Source: a virus
Taxonomy: Duplodnaviria > Caudoviricetes
IMG/VR virus record: IMGVR_UViG_3300034170_000057
Length of the DNA: 64,000 bases
Direction: 5' to 3' (one strand)
Made by a program: the position numbers and the translations under genes. Within the stretch, counting starts at the first letter, position 1. Each line of letters begins with the position of its first letter. Positions 1,236-53,701 of the stretch are shown piece after piece. The notes beneath the pieces were generated by a model. That model saw nothing but the letters and a program-made list of their open reading frames with translations. It made no database searches and was not told the DNA's origin.

Positions 1236-2317
1236 TTTTCTTTTATGTGTTTGTCGCTATCATGGTCGCGCTTTACTGGTGGCGCAGGGTGCATGATTTA
1301 TCGGCAGTCGCTATGGGATTGATAGTCAGCCTGATCGTGGCCTGTGCATCATTCTACGGGCCTATGTATTGGCAGGCGTCCGACCTCGAATTACTGAGCG
1401 GTTCCGTAGCTGAGAAAAAGCGTGTGTATGATCCGGAAACGGAAACGTACAACTGCGGTACGGATTCGAAAGGTAATGCGCAGACCTGCACCCGGCAAAT
1501 TCCACGCTGGCGCTGGGATGTGGTTTCGGATATCGACGGCGATAAATTCAGTGAATACACGCACCAGTCGATTCGCAGTCCTGAGATTTATTCCCGTGCG
1601 CAAGTCGGTGATCCTTATACGGCTTCACACCGCTTTCTGAATTTCCAGAACGTGAGTGAACAGTCGGTGCTGCTAGACCGGGAATCTGCCGGGGAATACG
1701 TTGGATGGTTGCCGGATTATCCGCAAGTTTATTCCGGCTACAAAGTGCAGCGTGGTTTCTCCACAAGTCCGCTGGTTGACCAACGCGATTTGTCACGCAT
1801 GCTCAACGAGGCACAAAAGCGCTGGGGGCCAATGCACGGCGTAAACGTGATGGTCATTGTGATCGGCCCACAAGCAGACGCCAACAAGTTTTTCTATGCA
1901 CTGAAAAGTAAGTGGAAAGGCGGTAAGAAAAACGATGCGGTATTGATCGTGCGTGTGGACGAAGCGGGCACGATGACAAACACCAATTCGTTTAGCCGGT
2001 CGGCGGATGATCTGACCAACGAAGAAGGTTTGGCGTTCACCACAATGCTGCATGTAAACGCGATGAAAACTTTCACGCCAGCGGAAAAGAAATTCAATCC
2101 TGAATTAATCATTGCTTCCATCGACAAGTCGCTAGCGTATTTCAAACGCGAAGACCTTGGGCGCTATGACTTCCTGAAGGATGAATACATGCCGCCATAT
2201 TGGATGGTTGCACTGTCGTTAATCGCTGTAGTGCTGTCCGGTTCGTTAACTGTAAATCAAATAGTAGGCCGTCGTAGCGCCTATGGTCGCCGCCACCGTA
2301 AGTTCGGCTTTATCTAA
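1232..2317 (+). CDS. membrane protein with TPM-like periplasmic domain
   Basis: two N-terminal and one C-terminal TM segments; VNVMVIVI...KWKGGKKNDAVLIV resembles the TPM core. Confidence 0.55.
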   Translation: MIFFYVFVAIMVALYWWRRVHDLSAVAMGLIVSLIVACASFYGPMYWQASDLELLSGSVAEKKRVYDPETETYNCGTDSKGNAQTCTRQIPRWRWDVVSDIDGDKFSEYTHQSIRSPEIYSRAQVGDPYTASHRFLNFQNVSEQSVLLDRESAGEYVGWLPDYPQVYSGYKVQRGFSTSPLVDQRDLSRMLNEAQKRWGPMHGVNVMVIVIGPQADANKFFYALKSKWKGGKKNDAVLIVRVDEAGTMTNTNSFSRSADDLTNEEGLAFTTMLHVNAMKTFTPAEKKFNPELIIASIDKSLAYFKREDLGRYDFLKDEYMPPYWMVALSLIAVVLSGSLTVNQIVGRRSAYGRRHRKFGFI

Positions 2318-2336
2318 CTCAAGGAAACTGGAAATA

Positions 2337-2942
2337 ATGAAATCGAAACAACGTGGTGCTATCTCGATTACCGGGATTGTTGTACTGGTTGTAATCGTGC
2401 TGCTGGGCCTGTGGGCTGTCGGTATCAATAACACGGTCGTGCGTCAGGAAGCCGGGATCGTCGGCGCCAACAAATCGCGTCAAGCGGTGCTGTCGAACCT
2501 TAGTCAGAAGGTGCAAGAAGCTATCGGCGTGCAGGACATGAACGTCGAGAACATTCGCAAAACCGTGAACGAACAAATCAAGTTGCGTTCCGGTGCGGAA
2601 GGCATGAAAGCAACTGTGCTTTTCTTGCGTGAAAACAATATCCCGGCTTCGCAGGAACTGGCGATGAAAATCGTGAACCTGATCGACCAAGGCCGTGACA
2701 AATTCACACACGAAGAAAAGATGATGACGGATCGTAAAGTCGGTGCGTGTATGTATCGCGGTCAGTTCCCGAATAACGTCGTGATCGGAATCACTGGCGC
2801 TGCCAAACTGGAAATCGGCTGTAACGATGGCCCGGACAAATACGCACCGCTGATGAACGAACGCACGTCCACCTCATTCGAAACCGGCAAAGACCAAGGC
2901 CTGTACGACATGAAGAAACCTGCTGCACCTGCTGCGCAGTAA
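2337..2942 (+). CDS. LemA-like membrane-anchored helical protein
   Basis: N-terminal TM, then N..V..E..I, helical bundle, GR..F...., ..GQFP..V.G..G ending; AAGGA SD upstream. Confidence 0.6.
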   Translation: MKSKQRGAISITGIVVLVVIVLLGLWAVGINNTVVRQEAGIVGANKSRQAVLSNLSQKVQEAIGVQDMNVENIRKTVNEQIKLRSGAEGMKATVLFLRENNIPASQELAMKIVNLIDQGRDKFTHEEKMMTDRKVGACMYRGQFPNNVVIGITGAAKLEIGCNDGPDKYAPLMNERTSTSFETGKDQGLYDMKKPAAPAAQ

Positions 2943-2950
2943 GTGCAACC

Positions 2951-2972
2951 GGGGAATCCTACGGGGTTCCCC
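2951..2972 (+). terminator. GC-rich hairpin with cUACGg loop (terminator or stabiliser)
   Basis: GGGGAATCC-TACG-GGGTTCCCC, 9 bp with one G-U; only a weak T tail. Confidence 0.6.
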
Positions 2973-2989
2973 TTCTGAGGAAGTGAAAG

Positions 2990-3232
2990 ATGAAAAAGAA
3001 GAAAGCAGAGCCCGTAAATGATTTCGACGATTTCGATATCGTTCGCGGTATCGTAAACCAGACTCGCCAGTTCCCTAAATCGTCTGCGAAATTCATTAAA
3101 GCGCAGATGAAAGAAATTTATCCCGGCGTCACCGATGAACAGTTGGGCCGCTGCTGCAAAATGATCACGGATTCGTGGGCCATTCCAAGCAAGGTACGCC
3201 AATCCAGCAAGGTACAAGGAAAAAACAAATGA
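2990..3232 (+). CDS. hypothetical protein
   Basis: GAGG SD, 80 aa. Confidence 0.7.
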   Translation: MKKKKAEPVNDFDDFDIVRGIVNQTRQFPKSSAKFIKAQMKEIYPGVTDEQLGRCCKMITDSWAIPSKVRQSSKVQGKNK

Positions 3233-3579
3233 CCGATTTCATGATTGGCGTCAAACGCCTTGCGGATGTTCCAGCCTGCCCTCTGTGCGGTTGCAGCACC
3301 GTTAAAGAAACCCGCAAGTGGGCGCAGCATTGCAACGGCCACTGGAACGAATCGTTGGAATTCAATTGCGGGCAAAAATACGAATTCTCCCCGAACTTTA
3401 TGTGTGTTGGCCTTATGTCTGATTGCAAGGAAAACCCTGAATTCAAAGCCCGTGTGAAACTGGTGCAAGCCGTGAAAGCGGAGTTAATCGCCCACGGAAA
3501 AAAGCGCGGACTGTCTGAAGCTGATCAAAAACAGCTGGAAGACAAACTCCAATACTTCAGCGTTTCCACTTGGCACTAA
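3229..3579 (+). CDS. zinc-ribbon-containing hypothetical protein
   Basis: CPLCGC plus further Cys; ATGA overlap; AAGGA SD. Confidence 0.65.
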   Translation: MTDFMIGVKRLADVPACPLCGCSTVKETRKWAQHCNGHWNESLEFNCGQKYEFSPNFMCVGLMSDCKENPEFKARVKLVQAVKAELIAHGKKRGLSEADQKQLEDKLQYFSVSTWH

Positions 3580-3588
3580 GGAATTACC

Positions 3589-4320
3589 ATGGCGCAAGTT
3601 CATTTGTATTACGACCGCAAGCTGGATGAAATCGTCGAAGCGTGGGCAGACTCTCTGACGCCGAACAATGAAGATTTTGTTTTCGTTGATGGCGAGGAAG
3701 GTGACTTCGGCGTGATCCGCTTTTTCGGCAAGGATTTGGACGGTAACGAAAACGTCCACATGATTACGCAGTACATTCGCGGCGGCGATGTAGAGCAGAG
3801 CTATTACACGCTGGCGGGTGCTGACATTGTTCAGAAAATCATGCGTGAGAATTTCGAAACTGTTCTGCGTCGTGAGCTGGAAGAAAATCTCGATCCGGGC
3901 CAAGACGGCGGCATGTCTGTAGGCTTCGTTAAGGCATACGAAGAGGCCGAACAACAGCGCCTATTATCAGGCAAAGAAATCGAAGCTACCCTGCACCAAC
4001 GTTGCGACCAGCTGTTCCCGGATTACTTCGAAGACGGCCAGATTTTCAAATACGGATTTAAGCTGTTTGTGGCACACGTGCTTACACCACCGACTGCACC
4101 CGCACAAATCGCGTTCCGTAATCTGATCAACGAGAAAGAAATGCTCGCCATTAAATTGCATGGCAAAAAAGAAGGTCAGGTTTGCATGCTGATCGGGCAT
4201 ATCGGCTGGCGGCACGGTTTCAATGAGTCGCGCATTTGCGTGATTCAACATGACGAAAAACTGGAAAGCATGTACGTTCCGGTTACACTGCCAATCTCGG
4301 AAGTGAAGGTGGTCGGATGA
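3589..4320 (+). CDS. hypothetical protein
   Basis: AAGGA SD, 243 aa. Confidence 0.75.
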   Translation: MAQVHLYYDRKLDEIVEAWADSLTPNNEDFVFVDGEEGDFGVIRFFGKDLDGNENVHMITQYIRGGDVEQSYYTLAGADIVQKIMRENFETVLRRELEENLDPGQDGGMSVGFVKAYEEAEQQRLLSGKEIEATLHQRCDQLFPDYFEDGQIFKYGFKLFVAHVLTPPTAPAQIAFRNLINEKEMLAIKLHGKKEGQVCMLIGHIGWRHGFNESRICVIQHDEKLESMYVPVTLPISEVKVVG

Positions 4321-4511
4321 TTTGGCTTCTTACCAATCTTTGGATTCTGTTTCCGCTGGCTGTAATCTACATGACCATTTGGTTTTTTATGGGGCATGCG
4401 CGTAAATACCTACAAGGTCGCATTTTCCTAATGTCATTTTTTGTCTACGGCTGGTGCCTGCTTTATGCGTCGGTAGGTGAAGACGTTTTCAACTGGATTC
4501 AGAGACTGTAA
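4317..4511 (+). CDS. small membrane protein
   Basis: two hydrophobic segments, ATGA overlap. Confidence 0.65.
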   Translation: MIWLLTNLWILFPLAVIYMTIWFFMGHARKYLQGRIFLMSFFVYGWCLLYASVGEDVFNWIQRL

Positions 4512-4513
4512 AT

Positions 4514-4762
4514 ATGCGATACCTACAGACAATTCTTTGTGGCGGTCTGCTGTTTGCTTTGATGGGTTTCAGTGACCGTACACAGCCACCGCTTGAAACG
4601 GAAGAGTGGGGAATAACGTTTACGGATTTACAATATATGAAAGCGTTTTCCCGTGCAACAATGGGACTAAGATCCCAGCAGCTACACAGGGACCGGGGCT
4701 GGGGCAGGGACCGGGGAAACCTTGGATACCGACGCGCTACTGGCATGGGTGGACGGCATTGA
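4514..4762 (+). CDS. hypothetical protein with N-terminal hydrophobic segment
   Basis: fills the gap between neighbours; competes with the 4606 frame. Confidence 0.45.
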   Translation: MRYLQTILCGGLLFALMGFSDRTQPPLETEEWGITFTDLQYMKAFSRATMGLRSQQLHRDRGWGRDRGNLGYRRATGMGGRH

Positions 4763-4998
4763 AAGATTATCTCAAAAGCATTACGCGCAAAGCATGGTGG
4801 TTGATTGTCTTTTCAACGATCTACCTGTTGGCTGCCCTGTACTGGTTTGTGTGCGACATTCAGTCCGGCAAGTTTGGTAAAGGCGGGATGATAGATACCC
4901 ACCTCATGCAGTGGCAAATTGTGTGGCTTGTGGTCAGTGCATTGCCGCTAGTTATCCGTCCGCTGGGCGACTGGGTTTTTCAGAGGAACAGAAAATGA
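4759..4998 (+). CDS. membrane protein
   Basis: TTGA overlap start; two TM segments; could start earlier (4606). Confidence 0.55.
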   Translation: MKDYLKSITRKAWWLIVFSTIYLLAALYWFVCDIQSGKFGKGGMIDTHLMQWQIVWLVVSALPLVIRPLGDWVFQRNRK

Positions 4999-5813
4999 AA
5001 TACGAAATTTTCGAAGTAACCAAAGAAGATTTGAAATTCGAAATCGGCCTTATGCACAGCGACCAGCTGACCCACGCCGACGTTGCCGAAACCATGCACA
5101 TCTGTTTGTCCACCACGTTCAATACCACGTTCGACGGCGTGAAAGTTGTGGCTGCGGGTTTCTGTAGTGCTGGCCTGCCTGTGAAATGCTGGGGCCACTC
5201 TGAATCCATAAACATGCACAGCCGTGGCGATATCGACGAACTGGTTTTGATGCAGTCCAATTTGAATTTCGAAAACGTTTACGATTCGGACTTCGACTCG
5301 ATCAACAACGTGCTGCGCAATTTCTCGCAAAGCTGTGGCGCAGCTGTTGGCAATCAGTGGAACAACCAATTCGTGGTCGGCCATGAAATCACCGCCTACA
5401 ATTTGCTGGATGGTGATTTTGTCGAATTCGAAGAGGGTATGCTGCTGCGCTACAAAGGCCCGACCCTGAATGCAAACGGCCAAGCGGCGCATCTGTTTTC
5501 TGTGTCTACTACCTCGAAGTATTCGGCTGATTTCGACGGAATCTATTCTGTTGATTTCCGCATGCTGCGCGGTGTGTTCAAAGACTCGCCACTCATGCGC
5601 CTGCTGGCGAAAATGCAAAGCGGTGTGGTGTTGGTGGACAACGTTCCACAAGTGGTGAACATCACGTCGATTCATGATCCTTTCCCGCTGACGATTGATC
5701 ACGATCAGGTAATTGCGTCCTACATTCCGCTGGGCGGAGGCACGCTTGAACAACAGTTGTTCACCGGCACCATTCAACAAATCGCGAAACACTTCAATCT
5801 GTTGCACGACTGA
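4995..5813 (+). CDS. hypothetical protein, N-terminal KY..AGF..C.G.S.S..SR domain
   Basis: GAGG SD, ATG 4995; domain shared with 43203 and 52558 genes. Confidence 0.7.
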   Translation: MKYEIFEVTKEDLKFEIGLMHSDQLTHADVAETMHICLSTTFNTTFDGVKVVAAGFCSAGLPVKCWGHSESINMHSRGDIDELVLMQSNLNFENVYDSDFDSINNVLRNFSQSCGAAVGNQWNNQFVVGHEITAYNLLDGDFVEFEEGMLLRYKGPTLNANGQAAHLFSVSTTSKYSADFDGIYSVDFRMLRGVFKDSPLMRLLAKMQSGVVLVDNVPQVVNITSIHDPFPLTIDHDQVIASYIPLGGGTLEQQLFTGTIQQIAKHFNLLHD

Positions 5814-15241: not shown

Positions 15242-16441
15242 ATGCATGTAAATCTCGATCACCCGGCGGGTACTTACACCACTCGCCAAACAGTTGACTG
15301 GCAAGCGAGTCAAAGCGTCGATTTCGTAATGTTCACCGTTAACGGATTGATGCCTACGCTTTCCGAGTACGTGGCCTACGATACGCTCAACCCACCAAAC
15401 CCTTTTATCGCTGTGACGCAGGACGGGCGCGGTAACGTTGTGTATGACGGTGGCTTTCCGAAGTTCTACAACATGTCGGCGCCAGCAGCGGGCACAGCAT
15501 TTGCCAGCTTATCCGGTGCCCACAAATACCTGTACAACGCGCTGAATTTCGTGAGCAATAAAGCGAAGGTCAACGCAGGCAATCGCAAAGTGCTTATTTT
15601 GGGCGATGCAATTGCAGCAGAAAACTACCCGGTCAAAAGTGCTACGCCAACCGGTTTTTATACGACGTTCGTAAACGTGTTTGCGATTGCTGGATACACA
15701 CCAGTTTTCAAAGACCGCGCAGACTACAGCGGCACGCTGAATCCTACGCTTGAGGAACTCGACGGCTATTGCGCGGTGTTGTTGCTATCGTCGGATTACT
15801 CCACGCCAACCGGACGTTTCACAGCGGCGGGCGTCACGGCAATGGTGGCGTACCGGGAAGCCGGAAACGGTGTGATCCTGATCACTGACCACGGCCCGGA
15901 TATTCCGGACGTTACAACCGCAGCTAACGGCGCATACGGCGCGTTCTTCCGCACGGCAAACCAACTAGTGGCTGAATATGGCGCGTTCTTCAGCGGCCTC
16001 TATGATCGCACGCCGGTTAACGTGGGTTTCCTGCGCAGCACGTATGGGGATCACCTGCTGTATAACGGCATGGCGAACACTGACAACATTGCAGCCGGAC
16101 CTTCTGAGTCGCGAGTATTCATCGCGAACTATCCGCGCTACAAACCAAACGAATTGCCGAAACTCGAATTAGAAACTGGCTGCTACAACATCCAGATTCT
16201 GACGCGCCTGAAAGACGGCACGGTCGAGATTCAACGGCAGACAATTTGTATCGACAAAACCGGCGCAGGTCGGACGTTTGTCCGTAAGCTGTACGTTCGT
16301 GAAACCAGCACTAGCCCTTGGGTTGTGAATTTCGCCAAAGGTGGCTGGGGCGTTTACAAACAAATGCAGCTGATCCGCATGACCCCCGCGAATACCGTGA
16401 TGTGGGATGCAAAACTGAAAGATTGGGTGGGAGTTAAATAG
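15242..16441 (+). CDS. putative virion-associated protein with class I GATase-like alpha/beta fold
   Basis: Gly/Ala/Thr/Asn-rich; NVVYDGGFPKFYN motif recalled from jumbo-phage structural proteins; LDGYCAVLLL...AYREAGNGVILITDHG. Confidence 0.45.
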   Translation: MHVNLDHPAGTYTTRQTVDWQASQSVDFVMFTVNGLMPTLSEYVAYDTLNPPNPFIAVTQDGRGNVVYDGGFPKFYNMSAPAAGTAFASLSGAHKYLYNALNFVSNKAKVNAGNRKVLILGDAIAAENYPVKSATPTGFYTTFVNVFAIAGYTPVFKDRADYSGTLNPTLEELDGYCAVLLLSSDYSTPTGRFTAAGVTAMVAYREAGNGVILITDHGPDIPDVTTAANGAYGAFFRTANQLVAEYGAFFSGLYDRTPVNVGFLRSTYGDHLLYNGMANTDNIAAGPSESRVFIANYPRYKPNELPKLELETGCYNIQILTRLKDGTVEIQRQTICIDKTGAGRTFVRKLYVRETSTSPWVVNFAKGGWGVYKQMQLIRMTPANTVMWDAKLKDWVGVK

Positions 16442-44557: not shown

Positions 44558-45130
44558 GTGAACACTTCAACCACTGGGGAAATTGACATGGATCAGCTGA
44601 ACGAAAACCTGAGCTTGGAAGCAGCTGAAGCCGCTCTGCTTGCTATCGGTCAAAAGGACCACGAAGAGCAGGCGATGTACGACCGCAAGGCGCGCATGTC
44701 ACGCTGGATATTCCGACTGTATTTCTTGGTAGCGCTGCTGGGGCTTATCAGTCTGGCGGGCGCTGTGGGTTGGACGTACCGGGCATCCATTGTGCAGGAC
44801 TGGGATCGCTACGGTTCGCACCAAACGCAGTGCATTTTCAAAGTCGGTGAACGTACCGTGAAAGGCACCCGCGATTATTCGTATCGCTACTACACTATTT
44901 TGAACTGGAAATTTTACAATACAGCTGAGCAAAAAGAAGAAACGCGTATCGACATTTCCGGTAACGGCATGACCATTCTGGCCCACATGCCGGATGGCAC
45001 CAGCAACAAACAAGAAGTGTCGGACGGCGAGCGCTATAACCAACGCATTGACGTGGCAGACTCGTATTCGTTCTTTATGGATAACGGCAAAAACGCCGCT
45101 ACCGTTTCCTACAAATCCATGTGCAAGTGA
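44558..45130 (+). CDS. single-pass membrane protein with beta-rich periplasmic domain
   Basis: TM at about aa 50-75; GTG start after AAGGA. Confidence 0.7.
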   Translation: MNTSTTGEIDMDQLNENLSLEAAEAALLAIGQKDHEEQAMYDRKARMSRWIFRLYFLVALLGLISLAGAVGWTYRASIVQDWDRYGSHQTQCIFKVGERTVKGTRDYSYRYYTILNWKFYNTAEQKEETRIDISGNGMTILAHMPDGTSNKQEVSDGERYNQRIDVADSYSFFMDNGKNAATVSYKSMCK

Positions 45131-45516
45131 ACTGGCAGCACGGCACAACGCGTAGTGTCTTGCTGGTGGGTCGCTACGCAATTAAATTCCCCACTGTGGT
45201 CTGCTGGCGCAATTTCCTACGGGGCATTTTATGCAACGGTTCCGAGTACACGTCCAGCAAAATGAACTGTGAATTTCTGGCACCGGTTGTGTGGCGTTCA
45301 TGGTTAGACCTAGTGATCGTCATGCCCCGCGCAGATGTAAAGAGTCCAGAGGAAGACGACGAAATTCGTTTCGAATATCTCGAAGACTTTTGGCAGCGCG
45401 TGGACGCCAGCGAACAAGCAATCAAAGACATGATCTACGGAATCGTAGAAAACAAAATCTGTTCTGTCGGCAAAATAAACGGTGTGACCGTTGCCGTAGA
45501 CTATGGGAGTATATGA
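45121..45516 (+). CDS. minimal protein-kinase-like fold protein
   Basis: GTTRSV...YAIKFP (Lys), NGSE (alphaC Glu), VMPRA hinge, VAVDYG. Confidence 0.45.
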   Translation: MQVNWQHGTTRSVLLVGRYAIKFPTVVCWRNFLRGILCNGSEYTSSKMNCEFLAPVVWRSWLDLVIVMPRADVKSPEEDDEIRFEYLEDFWQRVDASEQAIKDMIYGIVENKICSVGKINGVTVAVDYGSI

Positions 45517-46330
45517 ATTGGCCCGTCCTCTGAAAATCAAACGTCGTCCGGAACTCACTGCGTGCCTGAAGAAAAACGGCTTCCGCAAAAACGTCGAAGG
45601 TTCCGATAGCGACAACTGGGTTTACGAACACAAAGCAGACGAAAACCGCGTGGTCGTTATTTGCGCGTTCGAAATCGCGACGGATATCGTGAAGTACAAA
45701 GATTTCCCGATGGTGGAACCTGAGACGCCGATTGCAGATGTGATTGCGTATATCGACTCCGAAATGGAATTGGTGAACAAATCTTTCAACGGCTTCAAAG
45801 CGCTGTTAGAAACTGTGCGCCAGCATGCGAAGGGCCTCGGTGTGAAAGGTCGTTTCGTGCCTAACGAAGTCGATACTCATTCGTGGGAATTCTTCGCTGA
45901 TTGCTACAAAGCACAGCCGCTGTTCTTCCTGTCTGATCCGGGGCCGAATGCGAAAGTTGAACTCGGTTACAACTACAACGAATACCCGGTTGAAACCGCT
46001 TACGAAGTGTTGAGCATTTTGCAAGGCAAGGGCTTCGAATACTGGCCGTGCGGCGACGAACGTGTGATGTTCAAAGGTAAGTCGATTTTCACTTTCAAAA
46101 CCTACGAAGATTTCATGCCGTTCATGTTTACGCACGGTCTGGTCCGCATCATTGAGCGTATGGGCATGGCACAATTATCGTCCGTCTCTGATCCGACCTT
46201 GAACGAATTGCTTGAAGGTCAAACCGATGTGAAACACTACGTGGAAATCCAGCTGCGTCGTGCAATTAACACCGATGAATTCTTCAGCTACATCAAATCC
46301 AAAGTTGCTGAAAAGGAAACCGCAGAATGA
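45503..46330 (+). CDS. hypothetical protein, paralogous C-terminal domain family
   Basis: FMPFMFTHGL...SDPTLNELLEG shared with 46327 and 52883. Confidence 0.7.
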   Translation: MGVYELARPLKIKRRPELTACLKKNGFRKNVEGSDSDNWVYEHKADENRVVVICAFEIATDIVKYKDFPMVEPETPIADVIAYIDSEMELVNKSFNGFKALLETVRQHAKGLGVKGRFVPNEVDTHSWEFFADCYKAQPLFFLSDPGPNAKVELGYNYNEYPVETAYEVLSILQGKGFEYWPCGDERVMFKGKSIFTFKTYEDFMPFMFTHGLVRIIERMGMAQLSSVSDPTLNELLEGQTDVKHYVEIQLRRAINTDEFFSYIKSKVAEKETAE

Positions 46331-47370
46331 GCTGTGTAAACATCGTTACCAAAGGGCTAGAACGTCAGCTAGAAAAGCGCGCTGGCCTGATCAAGCAACT
46401 GCTGGAAATCGGTTTCATTAACAAACCAAGTCCTGACCGTTTCCGCTGGAACCACGTCGAACTTATTCTGCTGGATTTCGATGGCCGTTGCCGCCTAACG
46501 GCAGGCTTGGATGACTCGGTTAATTTCTCTGCCCGGATCAAAGACGAAACGATCCTGAAAAAGATCATGGTCTACGTCGATAAAACCAAAGCCGATCAGA
46601 AAATGTTCGACGACCTTTGCATGGACGTGCAGCACAAGCTGGAAGAAATCGGTATCTACGTCGTGCAACAGGTCAAGACGCCCAAACGTCCGTCGCGCAT
46701 GCGCCACAAGATTGCCGTTCGTGATCCGTGGGCGTCCAACTTTGCAATGAAAATCAACGGCGACCGTTTGTTCCGTCTGAGCTTCGACGATCACGGTGAG
46801 TTTCCGGACGAAGGGCGTATCGAACTCGATTACCGCAACGATTACGTCGAGGTAAAAACAGCTGACGACGTGATCAAAGTTTTGCAGGAAACATTGCCAG
46901 ATGTTCGCGTTGTTGCCACGCTGAACAAGAATGCGATTTGCTCTTTCAGTTCGTACCGTATGTTCCTGCCGTACATTTTCAAATACGGCATTACCAGCAT
47001 CAAAAGCGTGTCGTGCGATGTTGTGCAAACCACGGCTGATCCGGTGGCGAGCCGTCTGGTTGAAGCCGAGAAAGTCACCCGTGAATATTTCCGGATCAAC
47101 CTGCGCAACAAAATGACGCTGGAAGATCAGGCGGCGTTGGGATCGGTTGGGCGTGCAAAAACACAGCCTGAAATTGTTGGGTACACAACGGTAAAAGAAC
47201 TGGCGATATTCCTGTCGATCAAACCGGCTGCTATCGTCAAACACATGTTCAAACTTGGCACACCCGTGACGCTCAATCATGTACTTGAGAAAGAAACAGC
47301 GCAGGAAATTGCAGGAAGTTTCGGTCGCGGCACGCTGCCCGAGGAAATCAACACAGGGGCCGCACAGTGA
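46327..47370 (+). CDS. paralog-family protein with C-terminal IF2 N-domain (IF2_N)
   Basis: [47 protein letters not shown] matches the recalled IF2_N repeat. Confidence 0.75.
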
Positions 47371-48056
47371 GCAATAAAAAACCGTACAGCAGCCGTACCG
47401 CCGATAAATTCGTCCTGCGCCTTCTCGACGATATGCGCCAGCAAATCAAAGCAATTTCCGAAGCCTCGCACCGCAGCATGAATAGCGAAATGATCGCGTG
47501 GTTAGAAACCATGCTGGAAATTCACGCGGAAACCGGCGTCATTCCTACGCTTGCGGATATGCGTAGCGGCGCCGAAATGGAAGCACAAAACCGACTGATG
47601 CGTGCGATATTCCAGCGTCTGTTGGAAGCTGGCAGCTGGCACATGAGCGCCGTGGAATTCGATTCGCATGATCACCATGTGGACGGCGTGCAATTCGAAA
47701 AAGAAATCAAAGAAGTTCTGGCGCAGGCGGTGCCTAAAATCCGTAATGTTGTGCAGCAAGTGGAACCGCATACGCTTGAAGTTTCTGAACCTTACAGCGT
47801 TCCGTTCGATAAACTGGAAGCGTTGGTTAAGTCGTTGCCGAAACCCTACGGCCCGGATCTTTTGCCACCAGTGCCGCAATTTATTCCGCAAGAAGGCATG
47901 CCGGTTTTTGTCAGCAGTATCGGGCGTAACGGCGTTGTTCGTCATATCTGGATCGGTGGCGACAACAAGTGTCAAATAACTATGGCCCGTGTGGAAATGT
48001 TCGGCTGTGGTTGCGTAGAAGTTCCGGCCCATGATTTGTGTGCGCCGAAGCCATGA
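47367..48056 (+). CDS. AmrZ-like Arc/ribbon-helix-helix regulator with C-terminal extension
   Basis: [18 protein letters not shown]....[13 protein letters not shown]. Confidence 0.85.
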
Positions 48057-48445
48057 CCAAGCACAAAGGGATTGATATTCCGCCGCACCAACAGGCAGTG
48101 ATCGACGATATGCTTCGAAAGGTATCCACGTCACGGAATGAAAAACATTTTCTGATCGTTCCCAATTACGTGATCAGCAAATACGACGGACAAGAGCATT
48201 TCATTAGCGAGCATAAGCTAATGAATCTGTACGGCGTTGAGCGGCGCGAATGCGTGGTAAGCAATGACCCGTGCGGGCGACGTGAAGAAGAGGGCCTGCT
48301 GTGGCTTGAGCCGTCCTATGAGGGCGATTACAGCCTGCCGGACGTGTGGGATGATCCATGCGGCCCGTACCAGCCTGACGACTCGCTGGTGCAGCTGTGG
48401 TTCATCCGTGCAATCCAACCAATTACAGGAATCTTTCCATGCTAG
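48053..48445 (+). CDS. hypothetical protein
   Basis: ATGA overlap. Confidence 0.65.
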
Positions 48446-49350
48446 TCAAAGGTGAAATTGTTTGGGCCTTCAACGGAACCTATCGGGATACTTTGTGGGG
48501 CGTTGAACTGCCACCGTTCGACGGTTCTGAACTCGGCATCACCATGGATGCGATTGCAGGCGATGGCAAAGTTGTTCCTTTCCGGTACGCAGCCGGTGTG
48601 GATTATTTCATCGAAGACCACGGCATAAATCAGCCCTGCATGTCGTTCATTTTCAAACTGGGTGGCCCGGTTGAATTGCAGGATGCGCAACTGAAATTGA
48701 TCGGGGCTTTCACGAAAGCGTTGACCTACGACTGGGATAAATTCCACGTCGCTTATCGTGCGCTCGCCAATGAAGAATCACGCGCCGTTCGTACCCTCGT
48801 TTATCGTGTGTATGAAAACAACGGCGAATGCACGGAACATCCGGAAATGCTGTGCGGCCTGCCCTGCGGCCATTACCATTGCCCGGTGTGTTCGGAAATG
48901 GTTGTTGCGGGCCTGCCCCATCCGCCAAAAGAAGCCTATGCGAAAATGCTGGAAGAGGAACGCGCTGAATATTACGTGCAGACTGAAAAGAGCCTTAACT
49001 CATACGCAGAACTCGAACAAAACTGGGGCGGCGACGGTGAAGAAAAACCGATTGAAGCCAGTTTTAAAAATGCGGGCGAGTTCTTTGCCGCGATCAAAGA
49101 AAATCGTTTGCCTGCACCCGATGCGACACTCGATCATGAGGGCGTTGTTGCTTTGCTGTGGCCGGACAATCACGATCCGGATGACACGTATGTTTCGATG
49201 GCGTTTTATGCAGATGAAACCGTCGGGTATTGGAAACGTAACGCGGTTATCGAAGAGAGTGGAAGCGTCACTATCCCACGTGACGAAATTCACGAAGAAC
49301 GTCTGCTGCATTTCTTGCATACCCGTCTGCCGCAGCTGTCCGGGAAATAA
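48439..49350 (+). CDS. hypothetical protein with CGHYHCPVC metal-binding motif
   Basis: AGGA SD, ATG 48439. Confidence 0.7.
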   Translation: MLVKGEIVWAFNGTYRDTLWGVELPPFDGSELGITMDAIAGDGKVVPFRYAAGVDYFIEDHGINQPCMSFIFKLGGPVELQDAQLKLIGAFTKALTYDWDKFHVAYRALANEESRAVRTLVYRVYENNGECTEHPEMLCGLPCGHYHCPVCSEMVVAGLPHPPKEAYAKMLEEERAEYYVQTEKSLNSYAELEQNWGGDGEEKPIEASFKNAGEFFAAIKENRLPAPDATLDHEGVVALLWPDNHDPDDTYVSMAFYADETVGYWKRNAVIEESGSVTIPRDEIHEERLLHFLHTRLPQLSGK

Positions 49351-49358
49351 TGTAAATA
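49351..49358 (+). promoter_or_regulatory. TGTAAATA putative late-type promoter
   Basis: intergenic, right after a stop, followed by a GCGCC/GGCGC hairpin and an operon. Confidence 0.55.
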
Positions 49359-49415
49359 TCAAAGGTGGCGCCTTTTAACGGGCGCTTTCCTAAATCCATT
49401 AAGGAACCGAATGAA

Positions 49416-50078
49416 GTGAACAAAAAAGTCATTGCTTTGGCCGCTGTAAGTTTGGCCCTTCTCGCAGGTTGCGACGACCAGCCAGATTATGAAGAGCAAC
49501 AGGCATACGTGGACGAAGAGGCCGGTCAGGCTACGCGTACACAAATTGCTGAAGACGAAAAAGATTTGCAGGCCACCGTTAAGGAACTGCAATCGAAAGA
49601 TCCATCGGTAAAAGACGCTTATTACGGCGTCGGCCCGAACGGTGAAAAACAACTGCATATCGTGCGTGAAGAGGCGAACGGAAAAAGCAGTGATTCCATC
49701 TGGCCTATGGTGGGCGGTGCAGCCATGGGTGCCCTCGGTGGCTACGCGCTGGCAAAAATGATGAACCAGAACGGCGGTTATCAGAATTACCAGCAGCAAA
49801 ACCAGCCACTGCAAACCACGCAATGCAATGAACAAGATCGCCGCCGTTGCCGTAATGGTGGATCGTCGGCTTATGCCACGGCACTGATGAATAATAACCG
49901 TGGTGCTGTACGTGCAAATCCTGCGTATCAAACCAACATGAACAACCGTGTTTCACAATGGCGCCAGAGCCCAGCAAGTGCCCCGGCCTCGTATCAAACG
50001 GTAGCCAATAGCCGCGCCTCCGGTATCATGACGGGCGGTGGTGGGCGTACAGCTGCACACGGCGGTAACGGCGGTTAA
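49416..50078 (+). CDS. DUF1190/YgiB-like lipoprotein
   Basis: GTG start after AAGGA; lipobox LLAGC; IWPMVGGAAMGALGGYALAKMM; Gly/Asn/Gln-rich tail. Confidence 0.65.
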   Translation: MNKKVIALAAVSLALLAGCDDQPDYEEQQAYVDEEAGQATRTQIAEDEKDLQATVKELQSKDPSVKDAYYGVGPNGEKQLHIVREEANGKSSDSIWPMVGGAAMGALGGYALAKMMNQNGGYQNYQQQNQPLQTTQCNEQDRRRCRNGGSSAYATALMNNNRGAVRANPAYQTNMNNRVSQWRQSPASAPASYQTVANSRASGIMTGGGGRTAAHGGNGG

Positions 50079-50107: not shown

Positions 50108-51475
50108 ATGCATTGCACGTATCACAATATCGGTTTCGACCTGAACAAAATGATGGTCGAAGAATTGCCGTGGACCCAAGCCTTCTACCGCGAAATGCCG
50201 AAACCTGAATCGACGGCTGACGCGGAATTCTACCAAGACGTGAAAGATTATTTCGCGTTCCCTCTCGAACACAGTGCCAACATGCCGGTCTACAATTTGC
50301 ACCTGAGTTCCTGTGCAAAAATCGAAACCGTTTTCGAATCCGCATACGCAATGCTGGTCGAAGCTGTGGGCAAGCTGTTCAACGAATCCAACGATACGCT
50401 GATGCACTATATGGGCTGCGATTTCCTGCGCAAGCACCCGTATTTCATCGACTACGCCAAGTTCACCTATCGCGACCATGGTTCGGCCCGCCAAGCAATC
50501 TACGGGCGCTTTGACGCTGCATTCGATCCTGTGACTGAGGAAGTTACGGGTATTTACGAATTCAACGGCGACACGCCTACCATGCTTTTCGAATCCGTAG
50601 CGTTGCAGAATCGCGTCTGTGAATCCGTGACGGGCGATGTTGAATTGCAGCTGAATAGTTTCTATCCGCTGCTGCAACAAATGTTCGAAGACATGGGCGA
50701 GATTCCGGGCACCGCTGCTGTGATCCATGACAGCAAATCCTTCGAGGATACCGCGACCTGCGAAGTGCTGGCGCAAATCATCGGTGAGCATAACGTCTGC
50801 CTGTTTACTGACGTTTCCGAAATCGACTACGACTTCAACAACAAAACCAATCCGTTCGCGGTTGGCGACGATAATCTCTCGGTTATTTTCGCATTGGTTC
50901 CGTGGGAAGAAATGGTCGAGGGTTTCCCGCAGGCGTACAAGGAATGGGCCAACTGGGCTAACCACGTCACAATGCTGGAACCGGCGTGGCGTTGGTTCAC
51001 CAGTAACAAAGGCATTTGGGCCTACATCACGCACCTAATGTTTACCAACGATGAATTCCACGCGAAATACGGCATGCTTCCCGTGCTGGAAACCTACGTG
51101 GATAACCCGTTAGTTTTCACGGGCAAAACCGGCTACGTTTCGAAACCGAAAGTCGGTCGCATGAGTACCAACATCGAAATCCACAAGGCCGATGGCACCG
51201 TGGAATTCGCGACCGATGGCCCGTACAAAGACGACAAGGTTTATCAGGTCTACACAGCGCCGCACAAAGTCGATGGCCGGAACAATTTCATTATCGGAAT
51301 GTTCATGGTTCCGGATATTGCATCCGATTACAATTCGCTGAAACAAGCGACGGCAGCTACGCTGTGCATTCGCGAATTCGACTCGCCTGTATTGGGCGTG
51401 AAGAACGAGCGATTTATTCCACACGTTCTGATCGACGATTTGCCGGAACCGGACGAAGAAAACTTCGAGGGCTAA
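50108..51475 (+). CDS. glutathionylspermidine synthase-like ATP-grasp ligase (YgiC/YjfC family)
   Basis: YGRFD, YEFNGDTPT, LEPAW...SNK, KPKVGRMSTNI. Confidence 0.85.
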   Translation: MHCTYHNIGFDLNKMMVEELPWTQAFYREMPKPESTADAEFYQDVKDYFAFPLEHSANMPVYNLHLSSCAKIETVFESAYAMLVEAVGKLFNESNDTLMHYMGCDFLRKHPYFIDYAKFTYRDHGSARQAIYGRFDAAFDPVTEEVTGIYEFNGDTPTMLFESVALQNRVCESVTGDVELQLNSFYPLLQQMFEDMGEIPGTAAVIHDSKSFEDTATCEVLAQIIGEHNVCLFTDVSEIDYDFNNKTNPFAVGDDNLSVIFALVPWEEMVEGFPQAYKEWANWANHVTMLEPAWRWFTSNKGIWAYITHLMFTNDEFHAKYGMLPVLETYVDNPLVFTGKTGYVSKPKVGRMSTNIEIHKADGTVEFATDGPYKDDKVYQVYTAPHKVDGRNNFIIGMFMVPDIASDYNSLKQATAATLCIREFDSPVLGVKNERFIPHVLIDDLPEPDEENFEG

Positions 51476-52561: not shown

Positions 52562-52896
52562 GCGAAGCATTCAAATACATCATGGTCGAAACCACCGATG
52601 AATCCGGTGACACTCACAATATTCCTGTGATGTTTCCGAAGTCGATCAACCACGACAAAATGTACGAAGCAACCCACGCGGCAATTCGCCGTTCGGGTAA
52701 CGGCCACCGTCCGGGCAAAGCTATCAGCGCCGGGTTTTGTGGCTACGGCCAAAACGGCAAAGTTTTCTGCCGTGGGTATTCCGAAACTCTGAAACTGGAA
52801 TCGCGGAAAGGAATCGACGAAGCCATTTTCCAACAGGTAAGCACCTACGGCCATACGCGGGTTGCCGCAGCGGTGAAACCAAATGCCGACGTTTAA
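52558..52896 (+). CDS. hypothetical protein (KY..SAGF..C.G.SE.L...SR family)
   Basis: ATGA overlap. Confidence 0.7.
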   Translation: MSEAFKYIMVETTDESGDTHNIPVMFPKSINHDKMYEATHAAIRRSGNGHRPGKAISAGFCGYGQNGKVFCRGYSETLKLESRKGIDEAIFQQVSTYGHTRVAAAVKPNADV

Positions 52897-53701
52897 TCCG
52901 GTCGAAGGCGAAATCCTTTTAGAAAAACTGCTGGCGGCTGGGTTCACCGGGATTGGCTTAGAGCGTTTCCGCCAGCACGTCGGCTGCACTGGCGTTGAAC
53001 TGCTGTCCAACGGCGTTAAGGTGACGATCCAAAAGCACTCACAAGGCCTGCGACACACCGTAGTTTACACGGGCACCCGTCTAGCAAAAGATGAACCCGT
53101 AGACGGCACGGAATCGCTTGCGGCATTCCTGATTGCGGCTGCTGCAAAAAATAAAGAATTGGATGCGCGAAGCCAGAAAGCAATCGACACCATTCTGAAT
53201 GTGTTCGGGGTTAACGGTACACAACTTGAGGTACGCACAAAAGATTTGAGCGGGCGGCAAGTGGCGCGATTCAGTGCAGGGCCGCATGATCTTTTCTATC
53301 TGGCGCACGCCGGTCGCGGGGCGGCTGTAACCAAAGGTCCGTTCCGTTTTGTTGCGTCGTACATGTACGATTCTGCTGATGAATGGGAAGAGAACGAAGG
53401 GCCTGAAAATTCGTTCTATTTCTCGGATACTGCGCAGTTGCTCGCGGGAATCAAGAACTTGTTTTCGCAGCCACCTGTGCCGCGTAAATACGAACGTGTT
53501 GGAAACGATATTGCTACGCTGGAAGAACCCGGCGCGTTTCTAGATATCATTTTCGAATACGGCCTTACGTGGGTTACGTCGAAAGAAGTTGATACTTTCC
53601 GCACCACAAGCTGCCCGACTACCAACCGTTTACTCGACGGTGACAATCAGACCATACGGCTGTACGCGCTAGGCTTCAAAGTGGCCCCCGCAAAACTGTA
53701 A
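52883..53701 (+). CDS. hypothetical protein, paralogous C-terminal domain family
   Basis: FLDIIFEYGL...TTSCPTTNRLLDG. Confidence 0.7.
   Translation: MPTFNPVEGEILLEKLLAAGFTGIGLERFRQHVGCTGVELLSNGVKVTIQKHSQGLRHTVVYTGTRLAKDEPVDGTESLAAFLIAAAAKNKELDARSQKAIDTILNVFGVNGTQLEVRTKDLSGRQVARFSAGPHDLFYLAHAGRGAAVTKGPFRFVASYMYDSADEWEENEGPENSFYFSDTAQLLAGIKNLFSQPPVPRKYERVGNDIATLEEPGAFLDIIFEYGLTWVTSKEVDTFRTTSCPTTNRLLDGDNQTIRLYALGFKVAPAKL

Follow-up and report, generated by a model that had tools for sequence, protein, structure and literature searches.

The 64,000-nt stretch of viral DNA analysed here (IMG/VR record IMGVR_UViG_3300034170_000057), hereafter the window, has a GC content of 51% and consists mostly of small + strand genes that belong to no known family. 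Its virion structural protein (15242..16441) is 81% identical to that of the Pseudomonas phage HRDY3 (313 kb) and 42-55% identical to those of Noxifer, RP12/RP31, Psa21 and PhiPA3, and orthologs of the gene that concerns us here, gene A, are found with 50-90% identity on contigs of 187-316 kb. Judged by the virion protein and by the size of these related contigs, the window comes from a phiKZ-like (Chimalliviridae-type) jumbo phage. The two captured host domains of the locus, N2 of translation initiation factor IF2 and AmrZ, both point to a Pseudomonas-type host. The features of the locus are collected in Table 1. Just upstream of the gene pair that ends in an AmrZ-like gene lies a 131-aa ORF (45121-45516; phrog_4301, E 3e-14), which is kept in this place, with 127 aa, in L008, L089 and L092 too. 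A glutathionylspermidine-synthase-type ATP-grasp gene (50108-51475 in the window; Pfam GSP_synth E 3.9e-41, phrog_6215 E 6e-104) follows some genes further downstream, and it is conserved there at every related locus and in HRDY3.

Table 1. Features of the gene A locus, in window coordinates.
Feature	Coordinates	Strand	Description
Gene A	46327..47370	+	347-aa phage protein: body plus C-terminal IF2 N2 module
Gene A body, about residues 1-278	46327..47160	+	member of a phage paralog family; without known domain
Cassette, about residues 279-347	47161..47367	+	short linker, IF2 N2 domain and tail; missing from module-less orthologs
IF2_N (PF04760) match, residues 287-334	47185..47328	+	equivalent to three-helix N2, residues 266-312 of P. 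aeruginosa IF2
Gene A body paralog, 275 aa, without module	45503..46330	+	E 7e-11; HRDY3 counterpart XDJ14990 32% identical
Third paralog, common part = C-terminal part of gene A body	52883..53701	+	E 3e-7
AmrZ-like ribbon-helix-helix gene, 229 aa, extended by a long additional stretch at the C-terminus	47367..48056	+	Pfam Arc E 1.3e-12
GTGA overlap: gene A stop / GTG start of AmrZ-like gene	47367..47370	+	sequence

That the C-terminus of gene A is an IF2_N domain is near certain. The Pfam profile matches it with 41.8 bits (E 9.4e-11), well above the PF04760 gathering score of 25.3 bits and over profile positions 4-52 of 53, and the 52-aa piece encoded by 47170-47325 matches on its own with E 3.1e-11. 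An earlier note, made from the letters of the sequence alone, had quoted this piece, the exact + strand translation and part of the C-terminus of gene A, as an IF2 N-domain fused to a phage protein, and the profile comparison that it proposed bears the reading out. The modules of two other phage proteins described below, carrier X of L008 and P0023, score 36.3 and 35.0 bits against the same profile. IF2_N is the only Pfam match of gene A, with neither GTP_EFTU nor IF-2 domains, and the IF-2 equivalog TIGR00487 is matched with 26.3 bits (cut-off 424) at profile positions 8-59 only. Because this match is short and far below the cut-off, gene A contains one IF2 sub-domain and is not an IF2, and the GTPase domain is absent, as the earlier note had stated. 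Searches of PHROGs and PADLOC gave no match for gene A, its paralogs or gene X (the gene of carrier X), and since neither gene A nor the module matches a PHROG, no tie by sequence to any known family of phage proteins was seen. With 45000-50000 as the query, Megablast gave no match in phages or plasmids, the ESM Atlas gave no usable match for gene A, and the full-length AlphaFold model has a mean pLDDT of 54.6, with a low-confidence body.

From which factor does the domain come? Among all PDB sequences, the top match is P. aeruginosa IF2 residues 266-314 (E 5.4e-10) and the second is E. coli IF2 residues 309-365 (E 5.3e-6). In pairwise alignment, the module shares 28/51 identities (55%) with P. 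aeruginosa IF2 residues 262-313, the second repeat, with a score of 131 versus 33 for the first repeat, N1. An exhaustive phmmer search with the 76-residue C-terminus against 1.8 billion representatives returned 17 matches only, and the top cellular ones were Pseudomonas-type IF2 fragments (for instance P0011, with 56% identity) that have MFKLGTPVT in common with the module. The earlier note was thus right to name the second repeat, to prefer Pseudomonas to E. coli and to expect Pseudomonas InfB as the nearest relative. Modelled alone, the module reaches a pLDDT of 78-89 in its core, and Foldseek lays the model on ribosome-bound N2 (7uiu, 7unv_x) with an rmsd of 0.8-0.9 Å over 49 residues at 53% identity; the predicted fold is a three-helix bundle superposable on N2 as it sits on the ribosome. 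By its closest relatives, the module is an N2 sub-domain captured from a Pseudomonas-type IF2.

One candidate for a further phage IF2_N was rejected. The sole 'phage' match of a tblastn search, in 'Pseudomonas phage Y6' (L003, OQ572408.1, an UNVERIFIED record), falls in host nusA-infB DNA: positions 1706-5737 hold host nusA and a full 840-aa infB of the same length as P. aeruginosa IF2. Either host sequence has been assembled into the record or the phage carried a transduced fragment, and this record is the source of false 'phage' matches for IF2 queries. A metagenome scan kept 80 loci, 78 of them ordinary infB; the two others, L046 and L048, had no GTPase motif in the ORF, which in L046 is truncated by the contig end.

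The gene that follows gene A matches Pfam Arc with 47.8 bits (cut-off 20.4) and aligns with residues 13-57 of P. aeruginosa AmrZ (3QOQ; E 1.2e-10), HRSMNSE and the DNA-reading strand being kept; beyond the ribbon-helix-helix part, its product has about 180 extra C-terminal residues. Phage homologs of AmrZ have been described as hijacked DNA-binding repressors of host genes, some of which repress type I-F CRISPR-Cas expression (10.1101/673095). The 4-base start/stop overlap between the two genes is kept in related loci, as GTGA in L001, L002 and L004 and as ATGA in L008. Such overlaps are usually taken as translational coupling, and from the GTGA we infer that gene A and the AmrZ-like gene are probably coupled in this way. 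Within 47275-47370 the AmrZ-like frame also lacks stop codons over some 30 codons upstream of its GTG start, so that ribosomes shifting by -1 close to where gene A ends would make a gene A-IF2_N-AmrZ-like fusion resembling the one encoded in L007 (see below); no slippery heptamer for such a shift was seen. Scans for sigma-70-type promoters and for terminators gave no excess over shuffled sequence.

The earlier note had proposed to look for the domain in orthologs of gene A, and the outcome is divided, since the domain is present in some and cleanly missing from others. Three clusters of gene A orthologs contain it, namely P0003, P0004 and that of the window; the proteins P0006 to P0009 are some 70 residues shorter and terminate in ...VGKAL or ...VGKVS. 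These loci are syntenic, and in both DNA and protein alignments those with and those without the module differ by a clean indel of some 215 nt, placed directly before the 4-base overlap with the next gene. In the tree of the gene body all module carriers fall into one clade (support 99/99), which also contains module-less members, and the outgroups have no module. In the cultured phage HRDY3 (L093, PQ015379.1, 1814-4103) the genes are arranged as in the window: the paralog comes first, then XDJ14991, an ortholog of gene A with 282 aa and 24% identity, and then the AmrZ-like gene (XDJ14992), with no IF2_N module. A different event is seen on a 19.5 kb contig, in the gene A ortholog P0005 (299 aa), where a deletion has taken out the module site and nearly the whole AmrZ-like regulator, so that the body now runs into what is left of the AmrZ-like gene, its final ~15 residues (...GCCVEVPAYDLSAPKS).

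Outside gene A, the module turned up in two other layouts, both on contigs of jumbo phages. In the window it forms the C-terminus of gene A; in L008 (312 kb) it forms the C-terminus of an unrelated 215-aa protein, X, whose gene overlaps the AmrZ-like gene; and in L007 (280 kb), from whose locus gene A is missing, it makes up the N-terminal end of the AmrZ-like protein, P0023 (IF2_N at residues 1-50, Arc at 72-113). The three layouts have one feature in common, namely that the module stands at the 5' edge of the AmrZ-like gene: its constant partner is this downstream gene and not its carrier protein. The presence on three unrelated carriers indicates that it works as a self-contained tag. According to the alignments, the module is a portable cassette of about 69 codons that is variably present.

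The family of protein X illustrates this variability. Its module-bearing members have 208-221 aa and its module-less members 135-157 aa, and at four further loci (L089-L092) gene X is directly followed by the AmrZ-like gene in 4/4 cases. The best match of the X-family profile is P. aeruginosa N2 (E 1.9e-6). Carrier X (L008:2551-3198; family P0031-P0041) starts with RPTPYRPRVPDDLF...LRYIREGIEKDRA, which has a ribbon-helix-helix-like look, and the module-bearing X proteins end in a C-terminal tail of charge +5/+6, PKLAKRKKK; P0039, which has no module, still ends in a tail-like stretch. At L089:2501-3166 (P0036) the sequence at the module site is 28% identical to the L008 module and has no Pfam match, and it may represent a decaying or replaced cassette.

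How often the domain was captured is addressed by a module tree of 54 columns, in which branching was poorly supported and accompanied by long-branch warnings. A single phage clade of modules was not rejected by the AU test (p 0.378), and one capture followed by shuffling would be compatible with these data. The module occurs in samples from several studies. A contig from a biofilm metagenome covers the whole stretch without an indel at the module, and a peat metatranscriptome (X1) contains the stretch at 100% identity and flat depth; as the peat library is probably the sample from which the window itself comes and its match consists of contigs only, it is not evidence of transcription. Two co-occurring variants are present in the X1 RNA library at 46303-46560, 47304-47360 and 48434-48568, with a depth of ~35 versus ~70, whereas elsewhere the stretch is present in one version only. 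The pattern suggests a pair of strains that diverge at hot spots, the tail of the module being one of these. Among 50,697 phage records we found no module at all, all P0023 matches there beginning after it, and an IF2_N or N2 domain in a phage is nowhere described in the literature searched, in agreement with the earlier note, which knew of no such fusion.

Could the module be a functionless remnant, which hitch-hikes on recombination at the AmrZ-like gene? Its patchy distribution, its repeated loss and its degenerate state in L089 would fit such an origin. So would the synonymous divergence between the window and L001, which is about 4-fold higher in the module than in the gene body (1.6 vs 0.39) and suggests a separate history through recombination, although the figures for module divergence are a hint, coming from 52 codons only. 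Against this, dN/dS is 0.04 in the module and 0.37 in the body between the window and L006, 0.24 and 0.27 between the window and L001, and 0.24 and 0.19 between L008 and L090, ratios which indicate that the module is under purifying selection. The frame is moreover intact, and the predicted fold is preserved on three carriers after ~50% sequence divergence. We consider it very improbable that the module is such a passenger.

What, then, might an N2 sub-domain do at the end of a phage protein? In the rotated 70S initiation complex of P. aeruginosa, IF2 was traced over residues 248-332, of which 266-312 make up a bundle of three helices, N2, packed against 16S rRNA h16 in the 30S shoulder (Basu et al. 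2022, PMC9192638). This places N2 where the earlier note had expected the IF2 N-region, as an anchor on the ribosome, and gives a 30S-docking role of the module a structural basis. Ser277, Val278, Lys279 and Arg259 make up the main interface with h16, the extension before N2 (residues 248-265, which include Arg259) wraps the minor groove of h16, and the N2 interface amounts to ~1173 of the ~5146 Å2 of IF2, most of which is supplied by the G and C domains (PMC9192638). The contact triplet Ser277/Val278/Lys279 is Ser-Ile-Lys in the window, and S-[V/I]-[K/R] is found at this site in 7/10 phage modules. The position aligned to Arg259 is Gln in gene A, where the long basic stretch of IF2 is missing; an equivalent of the basic N-terminal extension (IF2 residues 248-265) was not found upstream of the module in this gene. 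Over the 53-residue module, net charge ranges from -2 to +3 in the phages and from -2 to -4 in 31 host N2 domains, the module of the window having +2.

On this basis, our leading reading, which we hold to be quite plausible though short of probable, is that the activity of N2 persists in the module, which would thereby hold its carrier at h16 on the 30S shoulder. The face formed by helix 1, the turn and helix 2, with the Ser-Ile-Lys of the window, would be laid on h16. Next to this helix, uS3, uS4 and uS5 form the channel through which mRNA enters, so a carrier docked there would be tethered next to that channel, on 30S subunits or on initiating ribosomes. In the window the tethered protein would be gene A; other phages would place gene X or their AmrZ-like protein there. 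The raised charge of the module, together with the +5/+6 tail of the X-type proteins, might make up for the lost basic tail and the other missing parts of IF2. The early proteins of phiKZ that bind host ribosomes offer a precedent for docking (PMC10914614). Several observations count against this reading. Since the module comes without the IF2 basic tail and without the G and C domains, its stand-alone affinity for h16 may be low, and the Ser-Val-Lys turn might be conserved only because the fold requires it. The module is also dispensable, being lost or missing in close relatives, HRDY3 among them, and degenerate in L089. Finally, its constant neighbour is a DNA-binding protein, one or two of the three carriers are ribbon-helix-helix proteins, and Foldseek finds a remote likeness between the fold of the module and MerR-type winged-helix DNA binders.

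The same contact with h16 could serve a different end. Occupied by the module as a competitor or decoy, h16 would be closed to the anchor of host IF2, and initiation would be damped as a form of host shut-off, with no cargo involved. The structural basis is identical to that of docking, and N2 and the N-terminal domains are known to speed IF2 recruitment and subunit joining (PMC9192638; bioRxiv 10.64898/2026.06.26.734871). However, phage mRNAs also need IF2, a decoy would have no need of large, unrelated fusion partners, and stoichiometric competition by a low-affinity domain of 50 residues with an abundant factor is unlikely; we regard shut-off by such a decoy as improbable.

The constancy of the AmrZ-like DNA-binding partner raises a further alternative, that the module has been re-used, with its helix-binding face unchanged, as a general binder of double helices, DNA or RNA, which works with the ribbon-helix-helix regulators of the locus and has no role at the ribosome; it could, for example, give an extra DNA contact to the AmrZ-like protein or to its partner. 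The module always adjoins the AmrZ-like gene, with which it forms a single protein in L007, the N-terminus of carrier X is in register with Arc RHH, if weakly (hhalign probability 16%), and phage AmrZ homologs are DNA-binding repressors of host genes (10.1101/673095). The phage modules are also more basic than host N2, the X-type proteins ending in their lysine-rich tail, and the remote Foldseek matches are the MerR-like winged-helix binders pSK1 Par, RacA, BldC and gpNu1. Yet the matches to these winged-helix binders are weak (E 0.2-1, identities of 9-20%), most phage AmrZ-like genes are without a module, and by a wide margin the module is closest to the N2 domains of IF2, for which rRNA h16 is the ligand on record. 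We consider this role in nucleic-acid binding rather unlikely, but a serious rival to 30S docking.

A protein ligand is the remaining alternative. As an adaptor, the module might bind a host factor that recognises the IF2 N-region, in the way in which E. coli N1 binds NusA, or it might bind the AmrZ-like protein. The first option draws on the homologous N1 repeat of E. coli IF2, which binds NusA KH2/AR1, but this binding also needs IF2 residues 57-90 (PMC12297416), which are missing in the module, and the module resembles N2, not N1 (131 vs 33). For the second option, the L007 fusion suggests, by Rosetta-stone logic, that module and AmrZ-like protein work together; a complex prediction of the module with two AmrZ-like copies, run without controls, scored 0.00 and weighs neither for nor against binding. 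Overall, there is in our judgement little chance that the module acts as a protein-protein adaptor.

Returning to 30S docking, the shifting position of the module allows a wider proposal, which we put forward as possible but doubtful: the stolen N2 may serve as a movable tag that addresses proteins to the 30S shoulder (h16), swapped between neighbouring genes and placing different phage proteins, including an AmrZ-type regulator, on initiating ribosomes. Were this true, the phage would have a way to bias the choice of messages at initiation, or to link DNA-bound regulators to ribosomes. If the tag does bind h16, it would be a minimal, transplantable anchor for the 30S shoulder and would open a new entry into the handling of translation by nucleus-forming phages, in which transcription and translation are separated. 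If the module binds DNA instead, an rRNA-binding fold would have been re-purposed, which would be informative on the IF2_N fold itself. The system lends itself to testing, since the site of the donor on the ribosome is known at 2.8 Å, natural genes exist with and without the module, and HRDY3 is without it.

Among known systems, the closest to the module is N2 of P. aeruginosa IF2 (7UIU, 7UNV; PMC9192638), to which it is 53-55% identical, with a predicted fold within 0.8-0.9 Å and Ser-Val-Lys kept as Ser-Ile-Lys. Unlike this domain, the module sits on a phage protein and lacks the basic tail (Arg259), the G, II, C1 and C2 domains and the GTPase, and its net charge is +2 as against about -3. 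In E. coli, the homologous IF2_N repeat N1 is likewise an autonomous docking domain, for NusA (Metelev and Johansson 2025, PMC12297416), whereas the phage module is of the N2 type and has none of the extra NusA-binding beta-strands (residues 57-90). IF2_N has also been seen as a portable domain outside IF2, in a DGR target with FGE-sulfatase (PMC5758913) and in P0014, in which two IF2_N domains are joined to a planctomycete cytochrome c domain. These proteins, however, are cellular, have unrelated partners and are 27-36% identical to the module, further from it than Pseudomonas IF2 N2.

With respect to phages, a parallel is provided by early proteins of phiKZ such as PHIKZ014, a small protein of a Pseudomonas jumbo phage proposed to attach to host ribosomes (Gerovac et al. 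2024, PMC10914614). The module is set apart from it, by description, in that its putative binding to the 30S shoulder would be achieved with a domain stolen from a host factor. PHIKZ014 reportedly binds the large ribosomal subunit. The hijacked AmrZ homologs of Pseudomonas phages and plasmids, of which the neighbour of gene A is one, represent, as does the module, the takeover of a host domain (Borges et al., 10.1101/673095), but neither in those described nor in the 50,697 phage records is an IF2_N attached or adjacent to them. What the locus presents is host-domain capture aimed at the gene-expression machinery. That phages steal host domains and that jumbo phages put proteins on host ribosomes was known already; what is new, judged by the phage records and the literature searched, is the use of a sub-domain of an initiation factor as a free-standing tag.
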